A stretch of 64,000 nt of DNA, taken from the NCBI GenBank assembly GCA_051294905.1, contig CM119373.1:1552001-1616000 (forward strand), in the 5' to 3' direction. Below the pieces are notes generated by a model, which saw only the letters and a list, made by a program, of their open reading frames with translations, was not told where the DNA came from and did no database searches. The position numbers and the translations under genes are program-made. Shown one piece after another: positions 5,050 to 59,963 of this stretch (position 1 is the stretch's first letter; the number at the start of each line of letters is the position of its first letter). The stretch comes from Botryllus schlosseri. Its lineage: Eukaryota.

Positions 5050-5820
5050 ATTTTGCCTATACTTTTACTTTTTATTCAATTAGTAATATAGCTTTCAATA
5101 CAACATCCATTGTAACAAAAAATTTATTGAACTCGAAGACTTTTCGGGTGCCTCTTTTCAAGAGTTATCGGCACACTAAAGGGATTTAAACAGAGTTAAA
5201 AGCAAAACCAAAAAGGCAAAGTATGACGCAACAATCAAATCACTAACCATGAAATTCGCCTTGTACCAATGGCAACAATAGCAAACTATGAAGTATACGG
5301 ACGTATACGGTACTATAGTAGCAGCACAATTTGTAAATAAACAGTTACACGCACGAAACAACACGCACTGATGAGAAATTTGTAGGTTATAGAGGAAATC
5401 TTTTTGTCTACATAAAATAGGTTTGTTCAACTGAATAATAGTAGACTCCAGCACTTTTAAATGAAACAAAGACCTACCACGCGCAATAACAGTCATGTGC
5501 AATCTCCACGAAACAACACGCACTGATGAGAAATTTGTAGGTTATAGAGGAGATCTTTTTGTCTACATAAAATAGGTTTGTTCAACTGAACAATTGTAGA
5601 CTCCAGCACTTTTAAATGAAACAAAGACTTACCACGCGCAATGGCAGTCATGCGCAATGTCATCATAGTGCTGTGCGCAGGCTAGGTTTTCACTCAAATG
5701 CTAACCAATTGACGAAGCATATGCTTGGTAATCGTCATAGCAGTCTATTTTGGCAGCCAATTTGCACTGACGTGCGAGATCCATGCGATCATTTGCGCAT
5801 GTTTTTGATCGAATCAATTT
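5050..5820 (-). mobile_element. Penelope-like element 3' fragment (family 2) with partial tandem pseudo-LTR
   Basis: The minus strand encodes a GIY-YIG C-terminus (SSIG*HLSENLACAQHYDD...IARGRSLFHLKVLESTIIQLNKPILCRQKDFLYNLQI). There is a direct repeat at ~5352-5503 / ~5507-5658. Outer limits are approximate. Confidence 0.8.
5131..5175 (-). ncRNA. Decayed minimal type I hammerhead ribozyme (PLE family 2)
   Basis: The minus strand reads TGTGCCG-ATA-ACTC-TTGAAAA-G-AGGCACC-C-GAAA-AGTCT-TC-GAGT. Stem I is ACTC/GAGT, and GAAA and the UC cleavage site are present. The core differs from CTGANGA by two transitions. The layout matches 43892-43935. Confidence 0.7.
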
Positions 5821-12835: not shown

Positions 12836-14717
12836 GTTGTTGTTGTTGTATAAGTGTAATATTGGTGCTCGACTACTAATGGTCTTTTGCACCAGATCTG
12901 TGATGCGAGTATCATATATCCTTATATGTCTTTATAACTCTCGGCCGGTTAGTAGGGCATATTCAATGAGAGAGCCCATGGTAAGAGGATTGACCAGTAA
13001 TGTTTCCAAGCGGAAAGGAACGGCGTCTCTAATTTGGTCCCGCAGATACTGTCGAGGGCCTTCATACTTGGTGCAGTGAATGACGTAATGCTCAACGGTT
13101 TCAGGAACGCCGCAGTTTTCGCACTGTCCAGTATCGTAAATTCCCAATCTATGCAGATGAGAGTTCAGTTTGCAATGACCGGTTTGCAGACGGATAAGTA
13201 TAGCGTAGGCTCTTCTTGGCAATGATAGCACCGGGGCATGGAAACTCGACGCTCGGAACAAATTAGGGTAAAAGGAATTCTCTGCATTGCTGAAAAACTC
13301 TGATATCCATTTGGACTCGCAATGCTCTTGAATGAGGGACTGGCATTCCCTCGCTGTAATCTCAATGGTGCTGATGGGAGTATGCTCGGATGCCGCTTGT
13401 TTTGCCAGCTTGTCAACAGTCTCGTTACCGCTGATCCCCTTGTGACTTGGGACCCAAATTAACGTGACTTTGGGCACTTTCCTTCAGACCATAATGAATT
13501 AATACATCTTAGGATATATTTTTTGCATTCGCTGGGCAGGTTAGTGAACATAGGGTAACACAGTTTGTCCTGTCCTGGAGAAGAGCTTTTTCTATGTTTG
13601 AGTACCCGTGTTAACTCTGTGAGAGAAAATGGAGAGTTAATCTCCTCGTGAACGCTGGACTCATTAAATGCTGGGACGATTATTTCGGATCTCACTAGTT
13701 CACGTCGGCGCTTAGTTGGTTCATCGATTGTGTCCCCGCTACTGATGGAGGCGAAATGTGCACCCATAGCGTCTGCTTTCATTCTGTTGTCGGTGATACC
13801 GATGCCGTCCGATTGAAGTGTGTGAATATGATTCCACGATATGTTACCGCTCATGGAGCGTATGGCTCCCCAGACCCGTGTTAATTTGGTGTTGCTGTCA
13901 CATGAAGTACAGAAATCTTGCCAATGAGATTTTTTTGCTTGAAGCACAACTTTTCTTGCTTCTGCACGACGTCGCTTGAAAGCTATAACGTCTTCTGTTC
14001 GGAAGCTGCGTTTCATTTTGCAATATGCAGCTCGTTTTAGTCTAATTGCCTTGGAGCATTCCTTGGTCCACCATGGTATGCTCTGTTTTACTACTGGTCT
14101 GGTTAGAGGGATGCTGTCAGATGCTGATGATATTATTGCGTCGGTAATAGCCTCCACTGTACAGTCACCAGACTCCTCAATCATTGCGAAGTATGTGCCA
14201 CTTGCTTTTCTAAATTTTTCCCACTTGGCCCTGTGGAGTGACCACGATGTGCAATGTCCTTCTGTCGAATCGGATCTGCGCACATTTACTGTCGTTGCAA
14301 TAATGTAGTGGCCACTGCCCAGTAGGTGGTCCGAGACCGTTGTTGACATCTTGTGTGCTACATCTTTCGATGCAAGGGTCAAGTCCAGTAATGATGTAGA
14401 TCCAGGATCTGGCATCGCAATATTCAACCTCGTTGGTTTATCTGTGTTCAACACTACCAAATCCATTGAACTAATAGCGAAGTGAAGATGGCGTCCGTTT
14501 CCATTCATACGTTGGCTTCCCCACGTAGGATGATGTGCGTTGAAATCGCCTAGCACTATAGTTTTTGTGTCGCATTTTGTAAACAACCGCTCTACCATTG
14601 AACGCGATATTTGACGGTTTGGCGGGATGTAAACGTTTATAATTGTCAATCCCGTCGTTTGTATTGCTTGTGCCTCAATGGGCCCCATATCGGATAACTC
14701 GACCTCACTGAACGATG
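12836..14717 (-). mobile_element. I-group LINE, 5'-truncated, with internal deletion of the RT domain
   Basis: 12-bp TSD CTTATGCGTGTG (12824-12835, 14718-14729), a (CAA)n tail, and an empty site at 29496-29507. ORF 13459-14688 is an AP endonuclease (LGDFNAHHPTWGS, LDLTL) plus linker and RT start (SPGQD). ORF 12932-13477 is the RNase H C-half (WVPSHKGISGNETVDKLAK) plus CCHC. Confidence 0.95.
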
Positions 14718-15288
14718 CTTATGCGTGTGAGAGTGAAGTGTAGAGCTGTTTAGCACGTGAACGTGAGCAGAAGTTTCATATCCGGTATTTTCGAATGGGC
14801 AACACACCGTTTTCACGAATCTCAACGAACCCCCAAAATCATTGTAAATTCATACATGGCGTACTCGCCAATGCTTGCCTTACGCTCACTACAGGCAGAC
14901 AATCGTTTAAAGTTATTCTTAATATAAATAAGCCGCAGCATATAATTAAATACTTGCAGATCGTTCCACATAAATCCATCGACATAATTCAGCTGCATGA
15001 AGTCTATCTGCACGCAGTGTATCTAACCAATCGCTTCCACAATAGCATATCTTATATTGATGTTAATGTAAACTTCAAGTCAAGAGTATGGATGTTCAAA
15101 CCTGAATTTATCAGCTATAAATTTATAAATCCGAAAATATATAAAGCAGAACTTTATTGATGGAATGAACACTAGCAATTTTGATATCTGAAATCGGTTC
15201 ATCTAACAAACTTTTTGCTCGAATTCATAATCATACGTCGAGAATCAACATCAGTGACTGTTCAGTGTTCAGTGTCTCGTAATGGGAG

Positions 15289-21283: not shown

Positions 21284-21457
21284 CAACTTCTTGGAGGTAC
21301 AGAACTTCAATATACAATTGATTAGTATATTCATATTGAAATGAACCCGAATATATTCGGCTGATACTCGTCAGGGGTAATCGTCAGAAACTAGTAGAGA
21401 ATACAAAAGAACAGCGTATATCATCAATCATAACACAAAATATGACGTCACCAGCAG
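21284..21457 (-). mobile_element. Solo Penelope-like pseudo-LTR (family 1), copy Y
   Basis: Homologous to 43825-43990 and flanked by CATT(A/G)GTGAATCTGAA (21268-21283, 21458-21473). It contains a mutated hammerhead at 21345-21388. Confidence 0.85.
21345..21388 (-). ncRNA. Hammerhead ribozyme, mutated (GAAA to GAAT), likely inactive
   Basis: The minus strand reads TCTGACG-ATT-ACCC-CTGACGA-G-TATCAGC-C-GAAT-ATAT-TC-GGGT. Confidence 0.75.
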
Positions 21458-33541: not shown

Positions 33542-33715
33542 CAGCTTCTTGGAGGTACATAACTTCAATATACAATTGAATAGTATATTTATATTGCAAT
33601 GAACCCGAATATTTTCGGCTGACACTCGTCAGGGGTAATCGTCAGCAACTAGTAGAGAATTCAAAATAACATCTTATATCAACAATCGTAACACAAAATA
33701 TGACGTCACCAGCAG
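33542..33715 (-). mobile_element. Solo Penelope-like pseudo-LTR (family 1), copy Z
   Basis: Paralog of 21284-21457 at the same position, with the hammerhead intact. Confidence 0.85.
33603..33646 (-). ncRNA. Minimal type I hammerhead ribozyme, intact core
   Basis: The minus strand reads GCTGACG-ATT-ACCC-CTGACGA-G-TGTCAGC-C-GAAA-ATAT-TC-GGGT. Confidence 0.85.
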
Positions 33716-41443: not shown

Positions 41444-43376
41444 GTAAGTTCGTACCATTTTTACGTCATATACATTTCAATGAGAGGAAATCTAATTCGA
41501 AAACAAACATATTTCGAATTCGAAAACTAACAACGATTTACACAACGAAAGATTAATCCCATCAATATGAATACAAATGTTTGGCTAGTATTTTGATTTG
41601 ATCGATATGTGTTTCAAGCCACGGAATAGTGTGTTCTGTTCAACATTGGGTGGAATGGTATTGCCGTCACGGCAAATATCAGACTCATATTTGAGCTATC
41701 AAACATATGACTGCAATTTCGTAAATACATGGTGCTTGTTGATGTTTTTGTTTATTGAAAGAGGAATTTTGCGCTTATCACCGCTTGGTCTTTTGCACCA
41801 CGGTCAATAATGACGCAAGAAATGAAAAGCAGTCAATGGTGGCCTACGTACTGGATAGGACACATAATATTGAAAATAGCATTTCAGCAAAAAGTAAAAA
41901 TGTCATAGCCAGAAAAAGGAAATTTCGGAGCGATGGGATAATAAAACAATAATTCGCAAATGATGGTTGCAGAATCTGAAACTTGAGGGAAGTGGGCGCA
42001 AGATGATGCAATTGGAAATACAAACAGAACGATAGAATATATAACAGTCCAACAGAGCTTTCACTTAATCCAATTAGTCAAATGAATGCAGATTATATAA
42101 AAACTACCACAAAATGATATGCAATTAATATCTCAGTCATGATGTTGTTTGTATTCCTCACGGATCACATACAATAATGATACGTTATCAATTATTATTT
42201 GTTTTCACCCAAATTGTCAAAGTCGTGGACAAAATTTGGTTTTGTTTATTCCGACACTTGAAAGACAATGCACATTTGAGTCGATGAAAAACTACCTCTT
42301 GCAAGATTTATGAAGCCGCTTTGATTAAACTTCAGGACTCAGACCGTTTACAACAGCATAAAGAATAGATTCCGCATTCGGGAAAGACTTCTATATTCGG
42401 TAATTTTATTGTGGGATTCTGAGAAATAATTTGCCGCCATTACTTTCTTTTGTAAAGGGGAATTGACTTTTGGTACAAATCCTTTACTATTGCCCAAATT
42501 ATTTGTTTCAATTTTGTTCTGTGTAGAGCAGCTACTTGTTTTATAAATTTAACCTGCCATTGGTAAGTTTGTTTTCCAAGCGATGTGTCATATTGCATTC
42601 ATTTAATGTATAATCATGCATATTGTATTATTTGCGACACACGATCAGAATTATTTTGCTGTCCAATACTTATTGATTTTAAAACCTCGATCCTCATGAT
42701 TCAGCTGGTTGAATTGACATCACCAACATATCGAAATAGGATTATAATATTCACCTATATGTAGTGGCCCGGCCAAGGGCAAAAGAACTCGGGTCTCCTT
42801 CAGAATGGTTACTTGTTTCCGGTGACGCCATTTGTGCACACTGTCAAAATATATATTCGTAAGGTCACATCTCTATTTAGTTTCTTACAAAATGAAAATG
42901 AGAATTTTCATCTCGACTTCTCCAATGAATTGATGGTATTCAGATAATATCATAAATCTCGTCGAAAAATAATGCAGATTGTAGATTTTAAGATATATAT
43001 GCTACATCGTCATTTTAGGCCCGAAGCGCTGGGTTAAATCTTGTCTAGTTTGTAAAATTTTATGCCGCGGCTACGATTTATTAAAACAGGGAAATAAAAT
43101 ATATAAAACTTCCTTAATTGTTTTGACAAATGATATGGGCGCACCTACGTCCAGCTTAAACACATATGCCAACGCGATAATAGAACATGGTGCAGAAGTC
43201 ATGGTCAAGTTTCAAAACAAATATAGCCTTTAGCGGGGCTATATCGTTAAACATATGTTATATCTTATATAAAACATACTATGTAATATATTCGATCATC
43301 CTTCCACAAAGGGCTTTTTAACGTATGGGTTGCAACCTAAATGATTCAGTCAAAATACATATTCATATTGAAATGA

Positions 43377-43420
43377 ACCCGAATATTTTCGGCTGACACT
43401 CGTCAGGGGTAATCGTCAGC
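43377..43420 (-). ncRNA. Minimal type I hammerhead ribozyme, intact core
   Basis: Exact reverse complement of 43892-43935. Confidence 0.85.
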
Positions 43421-43891
43421 AACTAGTAGAGAATTGGAAAGAACATTGTATATCAACAATCGTATCACAAAATAAGACGTCACCAGCATGAAATTTCGAA
43501 TGAGAGAGCGTTCAATGTACTATTTTTAGGTGATACACGAACTCCTTTTGTTGACAGAGTTTTGGTTGGTGTATTTTGATAAAAGTTGATTCCAAGGCAC
43601 ACAAATGGAATTGTGAACGGCCTCGCCCTAGGATTCGAAATCGGTCGTCTCGATAATTATTCGCACATATCGGATTATCCAACAGATGTTTGCCGGTGGC
43701 AGAATTAATGGCCTTTGATCGATCAACTTTTATCAAAATATACCAACCAAAACTCTGTCAACAAAAGGAGTTCGTGTATCACCTAAAAATAGTACATTGA
43801 ACGCTCTCTCATTCGAAATTTCATGCTGGTGACGTCATATTTTGTGATACGATTGTTGATATACAATGTTCTTTCCAATTCTCTACTAGTT

Positions 43892-43935
43892 GCTGACGAT
43901 TACCCCTGACGAGTGTCAGCCGAAAATATTCGGGT
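43892..43935 (+). ncRNA. Minimal type I hammerhead ribozyme, intact core; predicted cleavage after C43931
   Basis: Stem I ACCC(43902-05)/GGGT(43932-35), core CTGACGA (43906-12), G-C closing a 7-nt loop TGTCAGC, GAAA (43922-25), palindromic stem III AATATT and a UUC triplet. It lies in a PLE pseudo-LTR, where such ribozymes are known to occur. Confidence 0.87.
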
Positions 43936-44009
43936 TCATTTCAATATGAATATACTATTTAATTGTATATTGAAGTTCTCCAAGAAGCTCTTTAAATGGG
44001 AATTGCGAA

Positions 44010-47000
44010 CAGAGGTGGTCAAAGTAGTGAAGAAAGCTACGTAATTAGAAGTAGTAGTAGCTACAAAAAATCTAATCAAATACGAGTAGAAGTACTTTTC
44101 CATTAGAAACTTAAAACTACTTGAAGTAGAAGTAGAATTGACTGACTTTAAATCTACTCAAGTAAGTAGGTAGTTGTGAAAACGATCGTCATTCGTTCTC
44201 ATGAATTGTCTAAAGCAGTGTTTCTTAACCTTGCTTCGAGCGCCCCCCAAAGGGCGCTGGCGATTTTGAAGGGGCGGAACGCTCAGGGGGCGATATGGGG
44301 GGCGCTGGGATCAGGGAGGCGATATGGAGGCGCTGAAGAAAAATGGCTTCGCAGTAGCCGATATAGTAGTAGGATATATCCTTATCCACCGAAATTATGC
44401 GACGGGGTTCTCGCTCCCAGATGTTTGGTTATTCACTCTATGGGTGCGCATTGCGCAAGACAATTGGTTTTAAGGGACTAACGAAGTGCTGTTATGACCC
44501 GCCCTCATACCCATTGACTTTATTACAGTCCTTACAATCAATGTTCCCTCTAATTTTTCACGAGTCTGCGCAAACACGCCAACTCACTGCGCAGGCCCTC
44601 GGACAACAATGCGCAACCAGGCCCCCATAGGGTGATAAACTAACTGCTGGGGGCTTGGCCCCCAGACCCCCCTACAGCTCTACGCTTTTTGCTGGTAGCC
44701 TACTTATCATACCTACATTGGATGCCCGTTTAGTGGTCGTGTCGCCTGAACGCGCAATGCGCGAAAAATTTATATAACTCATGATTGAATCGGTCAATAT
44801 GATAGGGATTGCATATATATTGCTATCAATTTTTATCCTCTCTCTGATCACATAATCAGATTTACCGGAAGAGCTCATCGAGTGAGGTGTTTTGGAATAG
44901 ATAGGCCCTAAAAATAATAATAAAACATCTTCGGGCGTACCCGTTGGTATAATGACTTCGTTAAATGATGCTATTTCCTAGCCTCGTATCTGCTAAAGTC
45001 AAAAGACATTGAAATCGCCCAAACGTACTAAACTAAAAGACGCACACGGTTTCAAATTAGTATTTCTTTACTGGCAAATAATGTACCCTCGATATGGCAT
45101 TTGTCTTGCTGTAGGACTCGAATCGCCAGGACAGGAACATTCGGCACCAGCCATTTAGGCGTCCCAGGACAATTAAACATATATATATATCGAAGTTTTC
45201 GGTCAGCACAAGGGCAGTCCTTTTCGGCTAAGGTTTTCTCGCTGCTGATCGTTCTAGCGCACCTCTCGGAGTCGAATATATTACATAGCCTATAACTTCA
45301 GCTGTCCTGGTGCGTCGTGGTACGTTAATGGCCGACGCCCAAGTGCCCATTTCTATAAATCATGCGTATTTTTTTGTTGGAAAGGGTACCCAATATTCAA
45401 GATATTCGACAATACTAAATCGCGCGTAGCGCGAAAAAAATATTTAAAAAATTCCAAAAAATGATTTATATTAATTCACGTAATAATTTTGGGCAACCTT
45501 CGTGCTCGGACCCTCCAATTGGGGGGTTTGGGGTGCGGCAGTTACGGTCCTGAGTAAATCTTACGCAATGTTCATGCCACGCGAAGAAGACTAATCGTTA
45601 GTTTCTCGCAGATTAACTTCGAGCTAGCCCACTGTTATTTATAACTTTGTTAAACCATGTTATTTCGCCATTCCTAGAAAATAATGCGCATTGAAATTAT
45701 ATCAGTATCGCTCACGCGTACAAGGCCATACAAAAAAATCTCTTTCGTGAGGCGCACGTGATTGCAAATTCTCATTTCTTCACGGAGCGCAATATTTAAC
45801 TTTGCCGGCTGCACTTGTACCTCGGTTTCAGACTTCAGTTAATAACAACATTTTCCCCTGGCAATGTTCCCTCCAATTTTTCACGAGTTTGCGCGCCTGC
45901 GTGGTCGATTGGACAACAGTGCGCAACGACTAAAACAAATATCACTTCGGATTTTTTTGTGCGCAGCTTAGATTTTCTGTGCGCAGAGACCGTTTCAGCA
46001 CTGCGCATTTGGGCACGTTCGCAGCTTAGAGGGAACATTGCTTACAATATGGGGGAGGGGCGCTCGCTGGAGCACGATATTATTTGAAAGGGGGCGCTGG
46101 AGGAAAGAAGCTTAAGAACCACTGGTCTAAAGCTGCGAATTGAGCTATGCGAAAGTTGCAGAGCTTGAGTCATATTGATGCATAGCAGGAGGTATCCAAT
46201 TTCCGACACCATAACCATTCGTCCGCATCATGGAATGAGAATGAGAGTATTGATATGGAAATGCGATACTAATCCTCTGTTTGCTCGAACAGCCCATTTT
46301 AGAAAATATCATGGTATGGCGTCCTCCCCCATATTATGAGGCCCGTAGTTTAGTCGAAGAGCAATACGGAAAAGTTGTATCGTATTCGATGTAAACATTT
46401 GCGCGGTTAGTAAACGTTAATAAGAAACATGGTGGATCGCAAGGATGCCATATTGTGTAGCTTTATTTCCGAAAATTAAGAGCATCACTACACTTGCTTT
46501 TACACTTCAGCATGTATGTTCACCAGGTAGAAGAACTGAAACTAAATAAAACTTTGAACAATGATACTACGAATTGAACAAGCAATACCAATACTAGTTC
46601 AGAAAAGCGGAAAATGTATTTCATGTCTTTGTCGGTACAATTTTAACGGTTGTCTGCTAAGACTAGAGCCCACTTTTCCAGATTATGACAAGCCATGGGA
46701 TGCTAGAATAAGATATGATGGGTAAATGCAAGATTGCCAAACGGTAGTTTCAAACGTTATGACGGGCCATATTTAATGTGTTGAAATATGTCATATGGGT
46801 GACAATGCGGTGCGAAAGGGGCCATACAACCTGCTACCTAAATAATATTCACTTTCGTGAAAACTTATTTGTAACTCCCATAATAACTTTGTGAAAAGCG
46901 CGACGGAAATTCTTTGTTTGACCTAAATTTTCTTAAAACTGAATGTTAGAACTCTGTGAAAACAGTCCGAGAATTCCCCAGTTTCTCTCTCTAAATGGAT

Positions 47001-55715: not shown

Positions 55716-58541
55716 TTAGGCTCGTATTAAGCGTCTCCAACGCAGGCGGTCGTGGGCGTCTTCAGGCGACAGCCCGCGTTGCGCTAGGTCAGTCTCCATT
55801 GTCGAACGCCATGTTTTCCGATTCCAGCCACCTCTGCGCCATGGCTCCGTCGGAATGTGATTGATGATGGCGGCGGCTGGTTGCTCGTCTTGATGCCGCA
55901 CTAGATGGCCGATTAGGCGGAAGCGTCGTTCAGCTGCCAGTAGACGGCATGGGACCGTTCCTGTGAGCTCTCGCAATGCATTCGTGGATATATGCTCCGG
56001 ATGGTGAATGCCGAGTGCATAGCGGAGGAGTGCGTCATAGTTAGCGTTGAGCGTCTTAGCCAGCTTCTCTGTCAGCGCGAGTGCCTCTATTCCGTAGAGA
56101 AGAACCTGCTCGACAGTGGCACGGAAGATACGGGTCTTGAGCTGGGTTGAGGCACTTGAATGGAAGAGGCTATGTAGCCGTCTTGCCACGCCCCAGGCCT
56201 TTGCTCGCCTCGCCTTGAGCGCATTTCCAGAGTCGGCGACGTCAATACCGAGGTACACAAAACTCGTTTCGTACTTGAGATCGATTTCTCCCAGTTGAAT
56301 CGGTGTCGCGTTCTTCGGTAGAGCTGGTATGGCCAGAACCTCTTGGCGTTGATCTGGAGTCCAACAAGAGCGGCGGCGGCCTCTAGCTGGTTAATGAGGC
56401 GCTGTGCCGATGCGGTGTTCGGGGCAAGCAAGGCTAGGTCGTCTGCGTAGGCAAGAATACCTACGTGTATTGCCTCGCGAGTCGTACGCGTGCGCGTTCC
56501 TTGCCGTGGCCGCCATTCAAAGAAGTTCGTATTATCCGGGAAGGCCGTTCGTAGGACGAAGTCAAGGATGACCACGAACAGGAATGGTGCCAGGGTGTCA
56601 CCTTGAAGCACACCAGCCGAAGTGTTGAAATCTCCGCTTGGGCCGTCATCTGTTCGGACTCGCGCTCGTGTGTCAGTGTAGAGCGCCATAATGGCGTACG
56701 TTATCACCTCAGGAATTCCGTAGAATCCGAGGATCTCTGCCATGGCTGGGCGCGAGACCGAGTCGAAGGCTTTCGCGAAATCAACGAAGACGGCCACAAC
56801 ATTCTTTTCGCGTGAGCGACAGGTGTCAATGATTGTGCGCAGTGCCAGGATGTGCTCTGTAGTACCGCGAGATGGTCGAAATCCATTCTGAGCATTCAGG
56901 AGCTTGGTAGAGAGTTGCTCACGTATGCGAAGGAGCAATACTCGGTCGAACAACTTGGCAGCGGTCTGCATCAGGGAGATGCCTCTGTAGTTCGCTGGGT
57001 CACTCGCAGCGCCTTTCTTGTAGATAGGGACGATTTCGCTCTCGAGCCACTCAGGGGGCACCGGGCCGCCTTCTAGGACGCCATTCATGACGTCGAGGAG
57101 CATAGGTGCAACGCCCGAGGTGTAAGCAGCTGTTGGGATGCCGTCCGTGCCGGTGGCCTTGAATTGTGGTACTCCACGCATGGCTGTCTTGAGCTCACCT
57201 AGCGTGATCAGGGCTGTATTGATCGCAAGAGGATTTGCTGCTAGTGAAGGCGGTGCAACGAGCACATCGATGTCCGGTGCAGGTGTAGATAACAGGGTCT
57301 CGAAGTGTGCAGCGAGGTCTTCCGTACAGGCCTTCACGCGGGCCCTCTTGAAGCCAACTAGTTCACCGATGGCTTTCCAGGCTGCTCTTGATCGGCCTGC
57401 TTCCAACTCGTTTTCCACGGAAAGGGCAATAGCTTCGACTCGTTCCTTGCGAGCTGCGTCGTAAACGTTTGCAAGGTACAGAGCTGCCTCGTTAGCATCG
57501 CTATGTGCGTCCAGTGTTCCAGAGGTGTACGCAGCACGTCTGAGAGTCTTAAGGTTACGGCGTGCACTGAGCACTGTTGGGTCGGATTCCCAGGCTAATT
57601 TTGGACGTGGCTTGCTACGGGCCTCGCCGAGCGTTTCACGGGCTGCATCCTTGACTGCTGCTACAAGTGGCGCAAAGGCGGTCGGTATAGTATTTTGGAT
57701 CTCGAGGGCGTGGAGTGTGTGCATGGAAAAGACATTCATCTTATTTGCGTCCTTAAGATCGAACCAATTTGGTAGCGGATCCTTCGGTGTGCGCTTCGGG
57801 ATGAACGGGAGGTGTTCACGAAGCGTGGCCAACACCAAGCGATGGTCACTGCTGATCGTTAGCATGCGCACCGTTCGGCAGTTCGTGAAATGGCGCCGTG
57901 CGGGAGCATTGCAGCACATATAATCCAGCCGTGTGTTGCGTTGGCGCATACCGTCAAATGTCGTCCTACGATTCGGCTTCATAGACAAGTTGGCGTTGAG
58001 AGGAATGAGGTCGCAGCGGTCGAGTAGATTAGTAAAATGCTCCGAGTTGCTGTTCTCGTTGCCAACTGGGAAGCGAACTCGCTGCGAGCGCTCGGCCAAC
58101 GTGGCATTCATGTCCCCAAGCAGCATGGTTATGTCGCGCTGCGGGTAAGTTGATAGAATGCCTTCTAGTTGGTCGTAGAAAGCGAGCGTATCAGCTGGGA
58201 AGGCAGTGGTGTTCGGAGATGTTGGTCCATACGCACACACGAGGTGCAGTTTGCGGCGACGGAGTTGAATGCTGGCTGTGATAATGCGGCTGTTTATAAC
58301 GTCAATCTTTGCCTCAGCGTGGAAACGCTGGGATAAGATTAGACCGACGCCTCCAACTCCGCCTTGGTTGGCAGGTGATTGGATCATGATGATGCCTGCG
58401 CCTAGGTCTTTTTCGCGGAATGGTTCAGTGAAGTGTTGGCGATGTTCTTGGATTGCCAACGCATCAAGTTTGAGGTCAGTCACAAGTGCGGCAGCTTCTT
58501 CCTGACGCCATACAGAGTTTAGAGTTCTCGTGTTCAGAGTT
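55716..58541 (-). mobile_element. Near full-length RTE-type LINE (AP endonuclease plus RT), one frameshift
   Basis: The frame is open from 58540 (TLNTRTLNSVWRQEE...AIQEHR). EN motifs are LGDMNA, LDY and SDH; RT motifs are NYRGISL, QNGFR, FVDFAKAFDSV, GVLQGDTLAP and YADD. A frameshift at ~56340 (INAK/EVLAIP...FVYLG) joins ORFs 56087-58483 and 55716-56258. GC content is higher than the flanks. Confidence 0.95.
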
Positions 58542-59963
58542 GGCTAATTCCATTATAATTTAACAGGGGCTGTAATGCATACCCTCAGAATTGTCCAATA
58601 TTTACAAATGTTATTCTTTTTTGAATTCCAAGTTTATTAAAAAAAAAAAAATTGAAAAATGTTCAGCGGTTCAAAAGATATTGCGATTTAAAATCCTCTC
58701 GTCACTAGGTGGCGCTACTTTCAAAAATCTTTGAAATCGATATATTTCGCTTAAATGATGGTAGAGAACCAATTAAAATGTCCAATTAACCAATTCTGGG
58801 GCCAAGGAATTCAATAAAACCAACTGTTTCGCCCTAAACTCAATGAAAAAAAAGTTACGGATGAAAAAAAAAATGGGGGGGACGGGCTTGAAAATGTCTG
58901 TGGGATACGGCCTACACAAAAAAAAATTATTGTGAAATGTGCTTTTAAGGAGTATGGTTGATAAAAAGATTGATTTTAAATTTAATATTTATTCCACCAT
59001 GAAATATGCATTACATAAAAATTTCATGGTCCCAACCCATATTCCTGCTCACCGTAAATACTATTATCACCAGTCAAATATATAAATAAATTTATTTGTA
59101 TTGGTTTTTGAAATTTTTCAAGTAGAATCCGTGCTGAACCACCGCATCAACAATAATAGAAGCAAGTAACAAAAGACATATTTACAATAAATATGTTGAA
59201 AATGCATTTTGTCTCTTAGTATTGTCAAAAGTCAAAAATCCGAACATATTTATTGTTTCGTGTTTGGCATGCATTTTGGATCGTCGACTTGCCACATTTC
59301 AAGATTAATTGTAAATATGTCTTTTGTTACTTGCTTCTATTATTGTTGATGCGGTGGTTCAGCACGGATTCTACTTGAAAAATTTCGAAAACCAATACAA
59401 ATAAATTTATTCATATATTTGACTGGTGATAATAGTATTTACGGTGAGCAGGGATATGGGTTGGGACCATGAAATTTTTATGTAATGCATATTTCATGGT
59501 GGAATAAATATTAAATTTAAAATCAAGCTTTTTATCAACCATACTCCTTAAAAGCACATTTCACAATAATTTTTTTTTGTGTAGGCCGTATCCCACAGAC
59601 ATTTTCAAGCCCGTCCCCCCCATTTTTTTTTTCATCCGTAACTTTTTTTTCATTGAGTTTAGGGCGAAACAGTTGGTTTTATTGAATTCCTTGGCCCCAG
59701 AATTGGTTAATTGGACATTTTAATTGGTTCTCTACCATCATTTAAGCGAAAAATATCGATTTCAAAGATTTTTGAAAGTAGCGCCACCTAGTGACGAGAG
59801 GATTTTAAATCGCAATATCTTTTGAACCCCTGAACATTTTTCAATTTTTTTTTTTTTAATGAACTTGGAATTCAAAAAAGAACAACATATATAAATATTG
59901 GACAATTCTGAGAGTATGCATTACAAATCTCAAAAAATTTGCTAAATTATAATGGAATTAGCC
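58542..59963. mobile_element. 1.42-kb foldback (palindromic) non-autonomous DNA element
   Basis: Termini GGCTAATTCCATTATAATTT / AAATTATAATGGAATTAGCC. Arms ~58542-59188 and ~59308-59963 are near-identical inverted copies around a ~120-bp spacer. No coding sequence and no matching TSD (TT / TA). Confidence 0.93.

Follow-up and report, generated by a model that had tools for sequence, protein, structure and literature searches.

A candidate type I hammerhead ribozyme with a pseudoknot in the place of helix II in a clade of Penelope-like elements from Botryllus schlosseri

The stretch of 64,000 nucleotides of Botryllus schlosseri DNA that was analysed, referred to as the window, holds at positions 43892..43935 of the forward strand a short segment in which the letters of a hammerhead catalytic core are combined with a stem II of a single base pair, and which raises the question whether a strand located upstream of stem I can take over the role of helix II. 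On comparison of the sequences of related elements, the segment is probably a type I hammerhead ribozyme of one clade of Penelope-like elements (PLEs) with a C-terminal endonuclease, in which a pseudoknot stands in for helix II; that its RNA cleaves itself we infer from the same comparison.

Anatomy of the motif and its copies in the window

Read from 5' to 3', the motif consists of an upstream strand of 6 nt (X), a G and three further nucleotides, the 5' strand of stem I (4 nt), the core from C3 to A9, G10.1, a single base (n1), a second strand of 6 nt (X') and C11.1, followed by G12, A13, A14 and A15.1, a loop of 4-5 nt, U16.1, H17 and, beyond the cleavage site, the 3' strand of stem I (4 nt). 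In the intact family-1 copy at 43892..43935 (+), established by window scan, alignment and pairing count, X (GCUGAC) occupies 43892-43897 and is followed by G43898, the linker 43899-43901, the 5' strand of stem I 43902-43905, the core C3-A9 43906-43912 and G10.1 43913. The bridging base is 43914, X' lies at 43915-43920 and C11.1 at 43921, while G12-A15.1 occupy 43922-43925, the palindromic stem III loop 43926-43929, U16.1 43930 and C17 43931, with the 3' strand of stem I at 43932-43935. The cut is predicted 3' of C17, and the motif numbering thus leads to the same position, after C43931, as an earlier reading made from the letters of the window alone (the sequence-only reading). The same reading had described a pairing of seven base pairs between the upstream strand and loop II, with a spacing of 3 nt to stem I; the pairing is present, but its conserved helix comprises 6 bp with a 4-nt linker, the seventh pair being variable.

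A second intact family-1 copy, at 43377..43420 (-), is positioned head-to-head with the copy at 43892..43935 and has its predicted cut at C43381/G43380, and a third intact copy is found at 33603..33646 (-) with the predicted cut after C33607. A fourth family-1 copy at about 21344..21389 (-) has decayed (G to U in X, G to A in X', GAAA to GAAU) such that it no longer fits the motif. Family 2 is represented at 5131..5175 (-) by a pseudoknot hammerhead with a U3:A8 core (UUGAAAA), in which X lies at 5175-5170, the core at 5161-5155, X' at 5152-5147, the 5-nt stem III loop at 5141-5137 and the predicted cut at C5135/G5134. The four copies that the sequence-only reading had quoted carry exactly the given letters at all four coordinates and strands, and a relaxed scan of both strands of the whole window (NTGANNA, 9 nt, GAAA, 3-6 nt, T[ACT], with 4/4 stem I pairs) retrieved these four copies only.

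The copies at 43377-43420 (-) and 43892-43935 (+) are held by the two arms of a 247-nt inverted repeat, which are 96% complementary and each a 5'-truncated PLE copy. The left arm (43344..43590, -) contains, besides the 3' UTR and the hammerhead, the last endonuclease codons and the opening codons of the following unit; the right arm (43722..43997, +) has the opposite orientation, and its likeness to other genomic copies stops at about 43997. The stretch between the arms (43601..43725, -) is C-terminal endonuclease coding region in other copies and goes with the minus-strand copy, and a remnant of the start of the PLE ORF (MNILFNCILKFSKKLF...) extends over 43946..44044 (+), its ATG lying 14 nt past the predicted cleavage site.

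The window is repetitive in other respects as well. Several kilobases within 7051-36534 recur two to three times at a spacing of about 12.3-15.8 kb and with 86-98% identity, suggestive of a large block duplicated segmentally or in tandem, and the copies at 21344-21389 and 33603-33646 are part of this recurring block. Non-LTR retrotransposon ORFs at 56087-58543 (-) and 12932-14718 (-), with AP-endonuclease and RT and with RNase H and zf-RVT remnants, have no relation to PLEs; a 622-nt inverted repeat (58571-59192 / 59304-59925, 98% complementary, 111 nt between the arms) adjoins the non-LTR ORF.

Across 19 lineage representatives the invariant columns are U4, G5, A6, A9, G10.1, C11.1, G12, A13, A14, U16.1 and G1.1, and the column of A15.1 is nearly invariant in the alignment; judged from sequence, these invariant columns are the hammerhead core. 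The core box residues U4, G5, A6 and A9 occur in 19/19 representatives, with CUGACGA as the family-1 box; GAAA is invariant, A15.1-U16.1 is found in 19/19, and H17 is C or U, as the hammerhead cleavage dinucleotide requires. That stem II is reduced to a single G-C pair, as previously read from the window, holds for all 19 representatives, in which G10.1-C11.1 does not vary. The segment from A15.1 through the loop to U16.1 is self-complementary (AAUAUU, AAGCUU, or AAGUCUU with a central U.U) in all lineages, by which dimers are implied, and a short helix I together with a dimer-type helix III in every lineage bears out the assignment to minimal type I hammerheads with a palindromic stem III loop.

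Core positions 3 and 8 deserve separate consideration. Among the 19 representatives the pair reads CG in 12, UG in 4 and UA in 3 and is unpaired in none; the core of the metagenome lineage M2 is UUGAAGA or UUGAAAA, and UUGAAAA or UUGAUAA cores are frequent also in relatives of the hairpin type. The sequence-only reading had regarded a family-2 consensus lacking CTGANGA as evidence against a hammerhead. The box is literally lacking (TTGAAAA, that is UUGAAAA in the RNA, in 35/36 family-2 copies examined and ATGAAAA in one), yet the hammerhead reading is not overturned but rather supported by this lack, because C3 and G8 form a pair that covaries to U3 and A8 in several natural hammerheads which are active, according to the published description (Perreault 2011, PMC3088659).

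The host element and its amplification

Both families reside in Penelope-like elements, as had been proposed for them: an RT domain is followed by a C-terminal GIY-YIG-like motif, and the C-termini of the two families are homologous. In family 1 the motif begins about 109 nt past the stop codon of an ORF with an RVT_1 domain (E=1.7e-8) and with a GIY-YIG-like stretch near its C-terminus, for which the Pfam GIY-YIG match (E=0.023) stays below the cut-off, and it is the C-terminal end of this ORF to which the ends of the family-2 ORFs are homologous. The homologues, which measure about 840 aa and include RT domains, are encoded on contigs of about 2.7-3.5 kb, and in their alignment a DKG motif and GIY-YIG/CCHH-type motifs are visible, which are canonical PLE features (Craig 2021, PMC8557442). 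Sub-family B forms a tandem array with a period of 2722 nt, in which each unit is one open frame of 860 codons and the motif is separated by about 150 nt from the preceding stop and by 10 nt from the ATG that follows; the C group equally possesses an RT-EN ORF, which ends about 170 nt ahead of the motif. The motif thus sits in the terminal repeat of an element coding for a PLE-type RT and a GIY-YIG endonuclease, where it occupies the short gap that separates the stop codon of one unit from the start codon of its successor. Because of the RT domain, the GIY-YIG-like C-terminus, the DKG motif and the tandem unit layout, the carriers are C-terminal-endonuclease PLEs.

The copies in the window are heavily 5'-truncated, head-to-head insertions, an arrangement described for PLEs (PMC8557442), and in four public sequencing runs compared with the stretch most copies were short and ended near 43979. 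The truncated insertions (43344-43997 and loci L001-L008) in all cases overrun the cleavage site by about 45-65 nt and thereby include the opening codons of the following unit, so that the reverse-transcribed template would have been uncut, or religated, at that hammerhead.

Pattern searches on both strands of the 495-Mb genome assembly, with the reversed pattern as a control, demonstrate the extent of amplification. The pattern CTGANGAG-N7-CGAAA-N4-TC had 3521 forward and 3487 reverse matches and, when the first loop base was required not to be T, 401 + 390 matches, while the family-2 pattern with up to 2 mismatches had 586 + 614, with 0+0 matches of the reversed control in each case. In total, the genome contains about 7,000 motifs of family 1 and its relatives and about 1,200 of family 2. 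These match counts reflect repeat amplification and not selection, and the structure must therefore be tested by comparing lineages. Further pseudoknot families were not recovered: 78 genome matches with a 5-nt stem III loop were all variants of the known families, and no new family was among 22 genome matches with a U3:A8 core. A loose pattern for hairpin-type hammerheads matched this genome 3404 times versus 1208 times for the control, with no clear family among the first 100 matches listed.

Two groups of repeats that resemble the motif were rejected. An apparent third family (ATGATAA-G-N7-C-GAAATTTTTC; L071-L078) is not a hammerhead, since the core is wrong and stem I is absent; in this separate repeat of the same genome, ATGATAAG-GGGCGCG-CGAAATTTTTC, a motif-like spacing occurs without hammerhead core or stem I. 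Family-1 copies with TGTCGAC (L068-L070) are without X and stem I owing to a deletion between two CTGACGA boxes, and this deletion variant recurs at several loci of the genome (L068, L069, L070).

The distribution of the pseudoknot form among PLEs was addressed by a FastTree phylogeny of 68 PLE ORFs, of which this genome contributed four and metagenome loci the other 64. The pseudoknot was assigned to 14 rows and a hairpin helix II to 23 (10 by a strict rule and 13 by a relaxed rule with at least 3/4 stem I pairs), while in 31 rows, many of them contigs ending at or near the ORF, the motif was not found. One branch with a support of 99 separates the 14 pseudoknot rows from the 23 hairpin rows, and the split needs one change versus a shuffle mean of 11.4, with row counts inflated by near-copies. 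The pseudoknot form is taken as the derived state, on a tree rooted by midpoint only, because a hairpin helix II is general among PLEs. In a PLE sister to the pseudoknot clade (L089:1900-1960), CUGAUGA-U-CAAUCGC-A-GAAA is seen with GCGUUG upstream, a possible pseudoknot variant containing U10.1-A11.1 and a bulge that is too weak to count.

Covariation of the pseudoknot and competing readings

The pairing of X with X' was followed through the lineages of this genome and through a metagenome sample of the DNA around PLE relatives (77 loci), in which altogether eight distinct pseudoknot helix sequences, all pairing, were encountered. In this genome X:X' reads GCUGAC : GUCAGC in lineages A, F and B, ACUGGC : GCCAGU in C and E, ACUGAC : GUCAGU in D, UCUGGC : GCCAGA in H, ACUGGC : GUCAGU with one G.U in G, and (U)GUGCC : GGCAC(C) in family 2, where a U-C mismatch is located at the pseudoknot pair adjoining C11.1. 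On metagenome contigs it reads UCCGAC : GUCGGA in L079, L080 and L084 and UCUGAC : GUCAGA in L081, L083, L093 (both strands), L117, L119, L137 and L142, and takes a shorter form in L107. Decayed single copies with a mutated X' (L059-L067) show no compensation, as expected for dead copies.

Both the X:X' pairing and the 4-bp stem I covary across families, as the sequence-only reading had suggested from two families. Among 51 distinct copies, a set that includes all distinct copies, also decayed and truncated ones and some picked for a mutated X', 89.7% of the cells pair, against 27-40% with the partners slid by 1-3 columns; 4/6 pseudoknot pairs are changed on both sides, and 0/500 shuffles reach the covariation score. 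For the 19 lineage representatives the respective value is 94.7% of cells versus 29-42% slid, with a covariation score of 0.501 versus at most 0.091 when slid and 0/500 shuffles as high; the counts take sequences and not events, and as there are few independent events (about seven lineages, namely A/F, B, the C group, family 2, M1, M2 and M3, of which one genome accounts for four), significance is overstated by the cell counts and by the shuffle tests. Helix by helix, helix I is 93.4% paired, with 3/4 pairs changed on both sides, helix II consists of the one invariant G-C and the pseudoknot helix, the latter 92.9% paired with 5/6 pairs changed on both sides, and helix III of one pair and the palindromic loop; in these counts, M1 (L079, with a longer linker) and M3 (L107, with a 6-nt segment) were retained although misplaced by MAFFT, which cost some pairs and may have made a few chance pairs, and their own pairings were read by script.

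As covariation is blind to pairing in cis or in trans, the same fold could also arise with X paired to the X' of a partner molecule, whereby the intermolecular helix and the palindromic stem III would zip two copies into an active dimer. The self-complementary stem III, kept in all lineages, implies dimers and is in line with such an arrangement. On the other hand, the constant short spacing, with 6 bp, a G and 3 nt up to stem I and one n1, fits an intramolecular H-type geometry, and the pseudoknot hammerhead that has been crystallised pairs its pseudoknot in cis (PMC11300833), so that pairing in trans appears unlikely.

Quite unlikely is also a reading of the motif as a relic devoid of activity, which would descend from a PLE hammerhead after loss of helix II, be copied passively with a very successful element and owe its conserved pairing to another purpose such as recognition of the 3' UTR by the RT or the endonuclease. 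Naiad PLEs proliferate without canonical hammerheads (Craig 2021, PMC8557442), and the motif goes unrecognised by Rfam models, both of which would accord with a relic. Yet, while the flanks have diverged across lineages, the catalytic core positions are exactly the invariant ones, and C3:G8 changes only pairwise or via wobble, which is hard to explain without selection for the hammerhead fold; furthermore, the same architecture is catalytically proficient in other hammerheads (PMC3088659, PMC11300833).

A duplicated core box invites a further reading, in which X' pairs mainly with the core (CUGAC/GUCAG) in an off-state hairpin and X is nothing but a copy of the box CUGACGA. The box does occur twice in family 1, the minimum-free-energy fold of family-1 RNA pairs the core with X', and three CUG/CAG pairs are possible in most lineages. 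However, the core/X' helix owes its 77.7% pairing solely to invariant bases, none of its pairs being changed on both sides; counted together with a helix IV, 63.5% is paired versus a shuffled mean of 60.8%, with 40/500 shuffles as high. The core/X' hairpin has an energy of 0 to -6.0 kcal/mol versus -7.4 to -10.5 kcal/mol for the X:X' duplex of intact lineages; for lineages C, E, H and M2 the hairpin's value is just -0.3 to -1.3 kcal/mol, in family 2 it is absent, and X does not read as a core box in family 2, M1 or the C group. As the principal structure the core/X' hairpin is thus very improbable; in some families it may be a transient competing fold.

Hardly credible, finally, is that the motif belongs as a typical example to the known pseudoknot (RAGATH-1) hammerheads and presents X in the hairpin loop of helix IV. 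In favour of this are a weak partial match to RF03152 (model positions 25-77) and five pairs by which X could be enclosed in families A and B, but the match is without model positions 1-24 and attains 18.2 bits against a gathering score of 56.3, X is only 4 nt from stem I, stem III is of the dimer type, and the candidate helix IV, 49.5% paired among the 19 representatives and no better than shuffles, is unsupported in the C group and family 2. This match (RAGATH-1-hammerhead) was the best obtained in the comparison with Rfam, for which the sequence-only reading had looked to the hammerhead families and in which no hammerhead model attained its threshold, Hammerhead_1 (RF00163) following with 14.5 versus 34, both matches lying beyond the window copies; within the window, no Rfam model matched at its gathering score, and on its copies no hammerhead appeared at E<=10.

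Predicted cleavage and relation to known hammerheads

In the favoured reading of the motif as an intramolecular pseudoknot hammerhead, the 6-bp pseudoknot helix would stack on G10.1-C11.1 and take helix II's place, with n1 as the single base that bridges the deep groove of the pseudoknot helix. One base across the deep groove is the classical geometry of H-type pseudoknots. The 4-nt linker (G and 3 nt) would join the far ends of the pseudoknot helix and stem I and thereby hold helices I and II parallel to each other in the active fold, while helix III would form between two copies, in a dimer or in tandem units. G12 and the 2'-OH of residue 8 would catalyse cleavage after C17 (C43931), leaving a 2',3'-cyclic phosphate and an RNA with a 5'-OH that starts 3-24 nt ahead of the element's AUG.

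The predicted cut lies in all lineages 3-24 nt upstream of the PLE start codon (M-N/D-[IV]-[LV]-[FL]...), as seen at window positions 43932-43948, in the tandem array (L156, minus strand) and at L013, L016, L033, L035, L093, L117 and L107. The predicted distance from the cut to the AUG is 14 nt in family 1, 9-10 nt in sub-family B, 20-21 nt in the C group, about 24 nt in family 2 and 3 nt in M2, the metagenome lineage in which the AUG overlaps the 3' strand of stem I. The cut RNA, if formed, would amount to an mRNA whose leader is very short and bears a 5'-OH. In sub-families B, C and 2 (L009, L013, L023, L033, L035, L156), an AAUAAA hexamer (polyadenylation signal) is located a few bases past the 3' strand of stem I; family 1 is without it at that place. 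The 24 public sequencing runs listed are all present as contigs, and the three recorded as RNA hold next to none of the stretch.

A more far-reaching scenario can be advanced as a tentative possibility. In a single event, independent of phages, the PLE clade would have acquired a reduced pseudoknot hammerhead that lacks helix IV and continues to depend on dimers; X would mimic the catalytic box (NCUGNC versus CUGANGA) such that X' pairs either with the core (off) or with X (on), and the cut would make the 5' end of the mRNA 3-24 nt before the AUG. If this were true, the ribozyme would be a device for 5' processing that enables translation, with unit-length RNAs able to circularise.

The hammerheads of PLEs have been described with a long helix II, a hairpin of 6-8 bp in which a 5' base is bulged (Cervera 2014, PMC4209133), and they are said to be without tertiary contacts; the minimal forms cleave poorly in vitro, even as dimers (PMC4209133). 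In the pseudoknot hammerhead represented by RF03152 and the crystal structure 8YDC, the pseudoknot 'fulfils the same role' as helix II (Zhan 2024, PMC11300833), and this RNA is faster than the extended form, its pseudoknot being of the kind found in the fastest known hammerheads (PMC11300833). In addition, a type II hammerhead with a one-pair stem II and a 6-bp pseudoknot depends on the pseudoknot for activity (Perreault 2011, PMC3088659), and pseudoknots between stem I and stem II occur in about 40% of other hammerheads (PMC3088659). The proposition that in this lineage stem II is replaced by a pseudoknot is supported by the covarying X:X', but such a replacement is not new in itself (Zhan 2024, PMC11300833).

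Taken singly, the ingredients are all in print, namely the replacement of helix II by a pseudoknot, the combination of a one-pair stem II with a pseudoknot of six pairs, natural U3:A8 cores and PLE hammerheads of the dimer type. The literature searched, to which Lunse 2017 and Weinberg 2015 did not belong, yielded no description of a pseudoknot for PLE hammerheads, and the supplements of Craig 2021 and Cervera 2014, apart from one Cervera file outside the search, hold neither a matching motif nor the word 'pseudoknot'. Set against the literature searched, what would be new is the combination of these ingredients in a PLE clade and without the helix IV hairpin.

One PLE clade would accordingly carry a pseudoknot of the type that makes the fastest known hammerheads, whereas PLE motifs have been described as minimal and of very low activity, and by analogy pseudoknot PLE ribozymes may be genuinely active. 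An animal retroelement and phage or bacterial RNAs would have arrived separately at the solution of a helix II pseudoknot. Equally, standard descriptors and Rfam models overlook about 8,000 copies in this genome alone, and published claims of PLE groups without hammerheads or with a 'core' only (Naiad 'HHR_core', PMC8557442) merit a re-scan that is aware of pseudoknots.

Four known systems delineate the position of the motif. With the PLE minimal hammerheads (PMC4209133), the host element class, the location in the repeat between units (pLTR), the type I topology and the presence in thousands of copies are shared, and so are a helix I of 4-5 bp and a helix III of A15.1-U16.1 plus palindromic loop which implies dimers. 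In contrast to their long hairpin helix II (PMC4209133), one G-C pair and a 6-bp pseudoknot with an upstream strand are present here: only 9 nt separate A9 and G12, and the hairpin form is seen in 23 more distant PLE loci.

With the pseudoknot hammerhead (8YDC, PMC11300833) the motif has in common the 6-bp pseudoknot in place of helix II, by which the strand joining A9 and G12 pairs with a segment upstream of helix I, and a short A/U-rich linker into helix I (PMC11300833). In the former, however, a 5-bp hairpin (helix IV) provides the upstream strand as its loop and engages with the linker in a minor-groove triplex (PMC11300833). The present motif, by contrast, has no conserved helix IV, retains G10.1-C11.1 together with the bridging base, forms a dimer-type stem III and is carried by a retroelement of an animal. 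The type II hammerhead of Perreault 2011 (PMC3088659) resembles the motif in a single-pair stem II compensated by a 6-bp pseudoknot and differs in being type II and bacterial or metagenomic, with a loop I/3' tail pairing and a stable stem III (PMC3088659). A similar connection of the helices is found in the non-circularly permuted type-SGC hammerheads (Eckert 2023, PMC10085705), in which a linker of about 3 nt likewise ties the stem II strand to the stem I strand, the core helices form pseudoknots and the linker has been suggested to hold both helices together (PMC10085705); unlike in type-SGC, the classical type I block order (C-G-S) is maintained here, and only the 5' strand of helix II has moved upstream.
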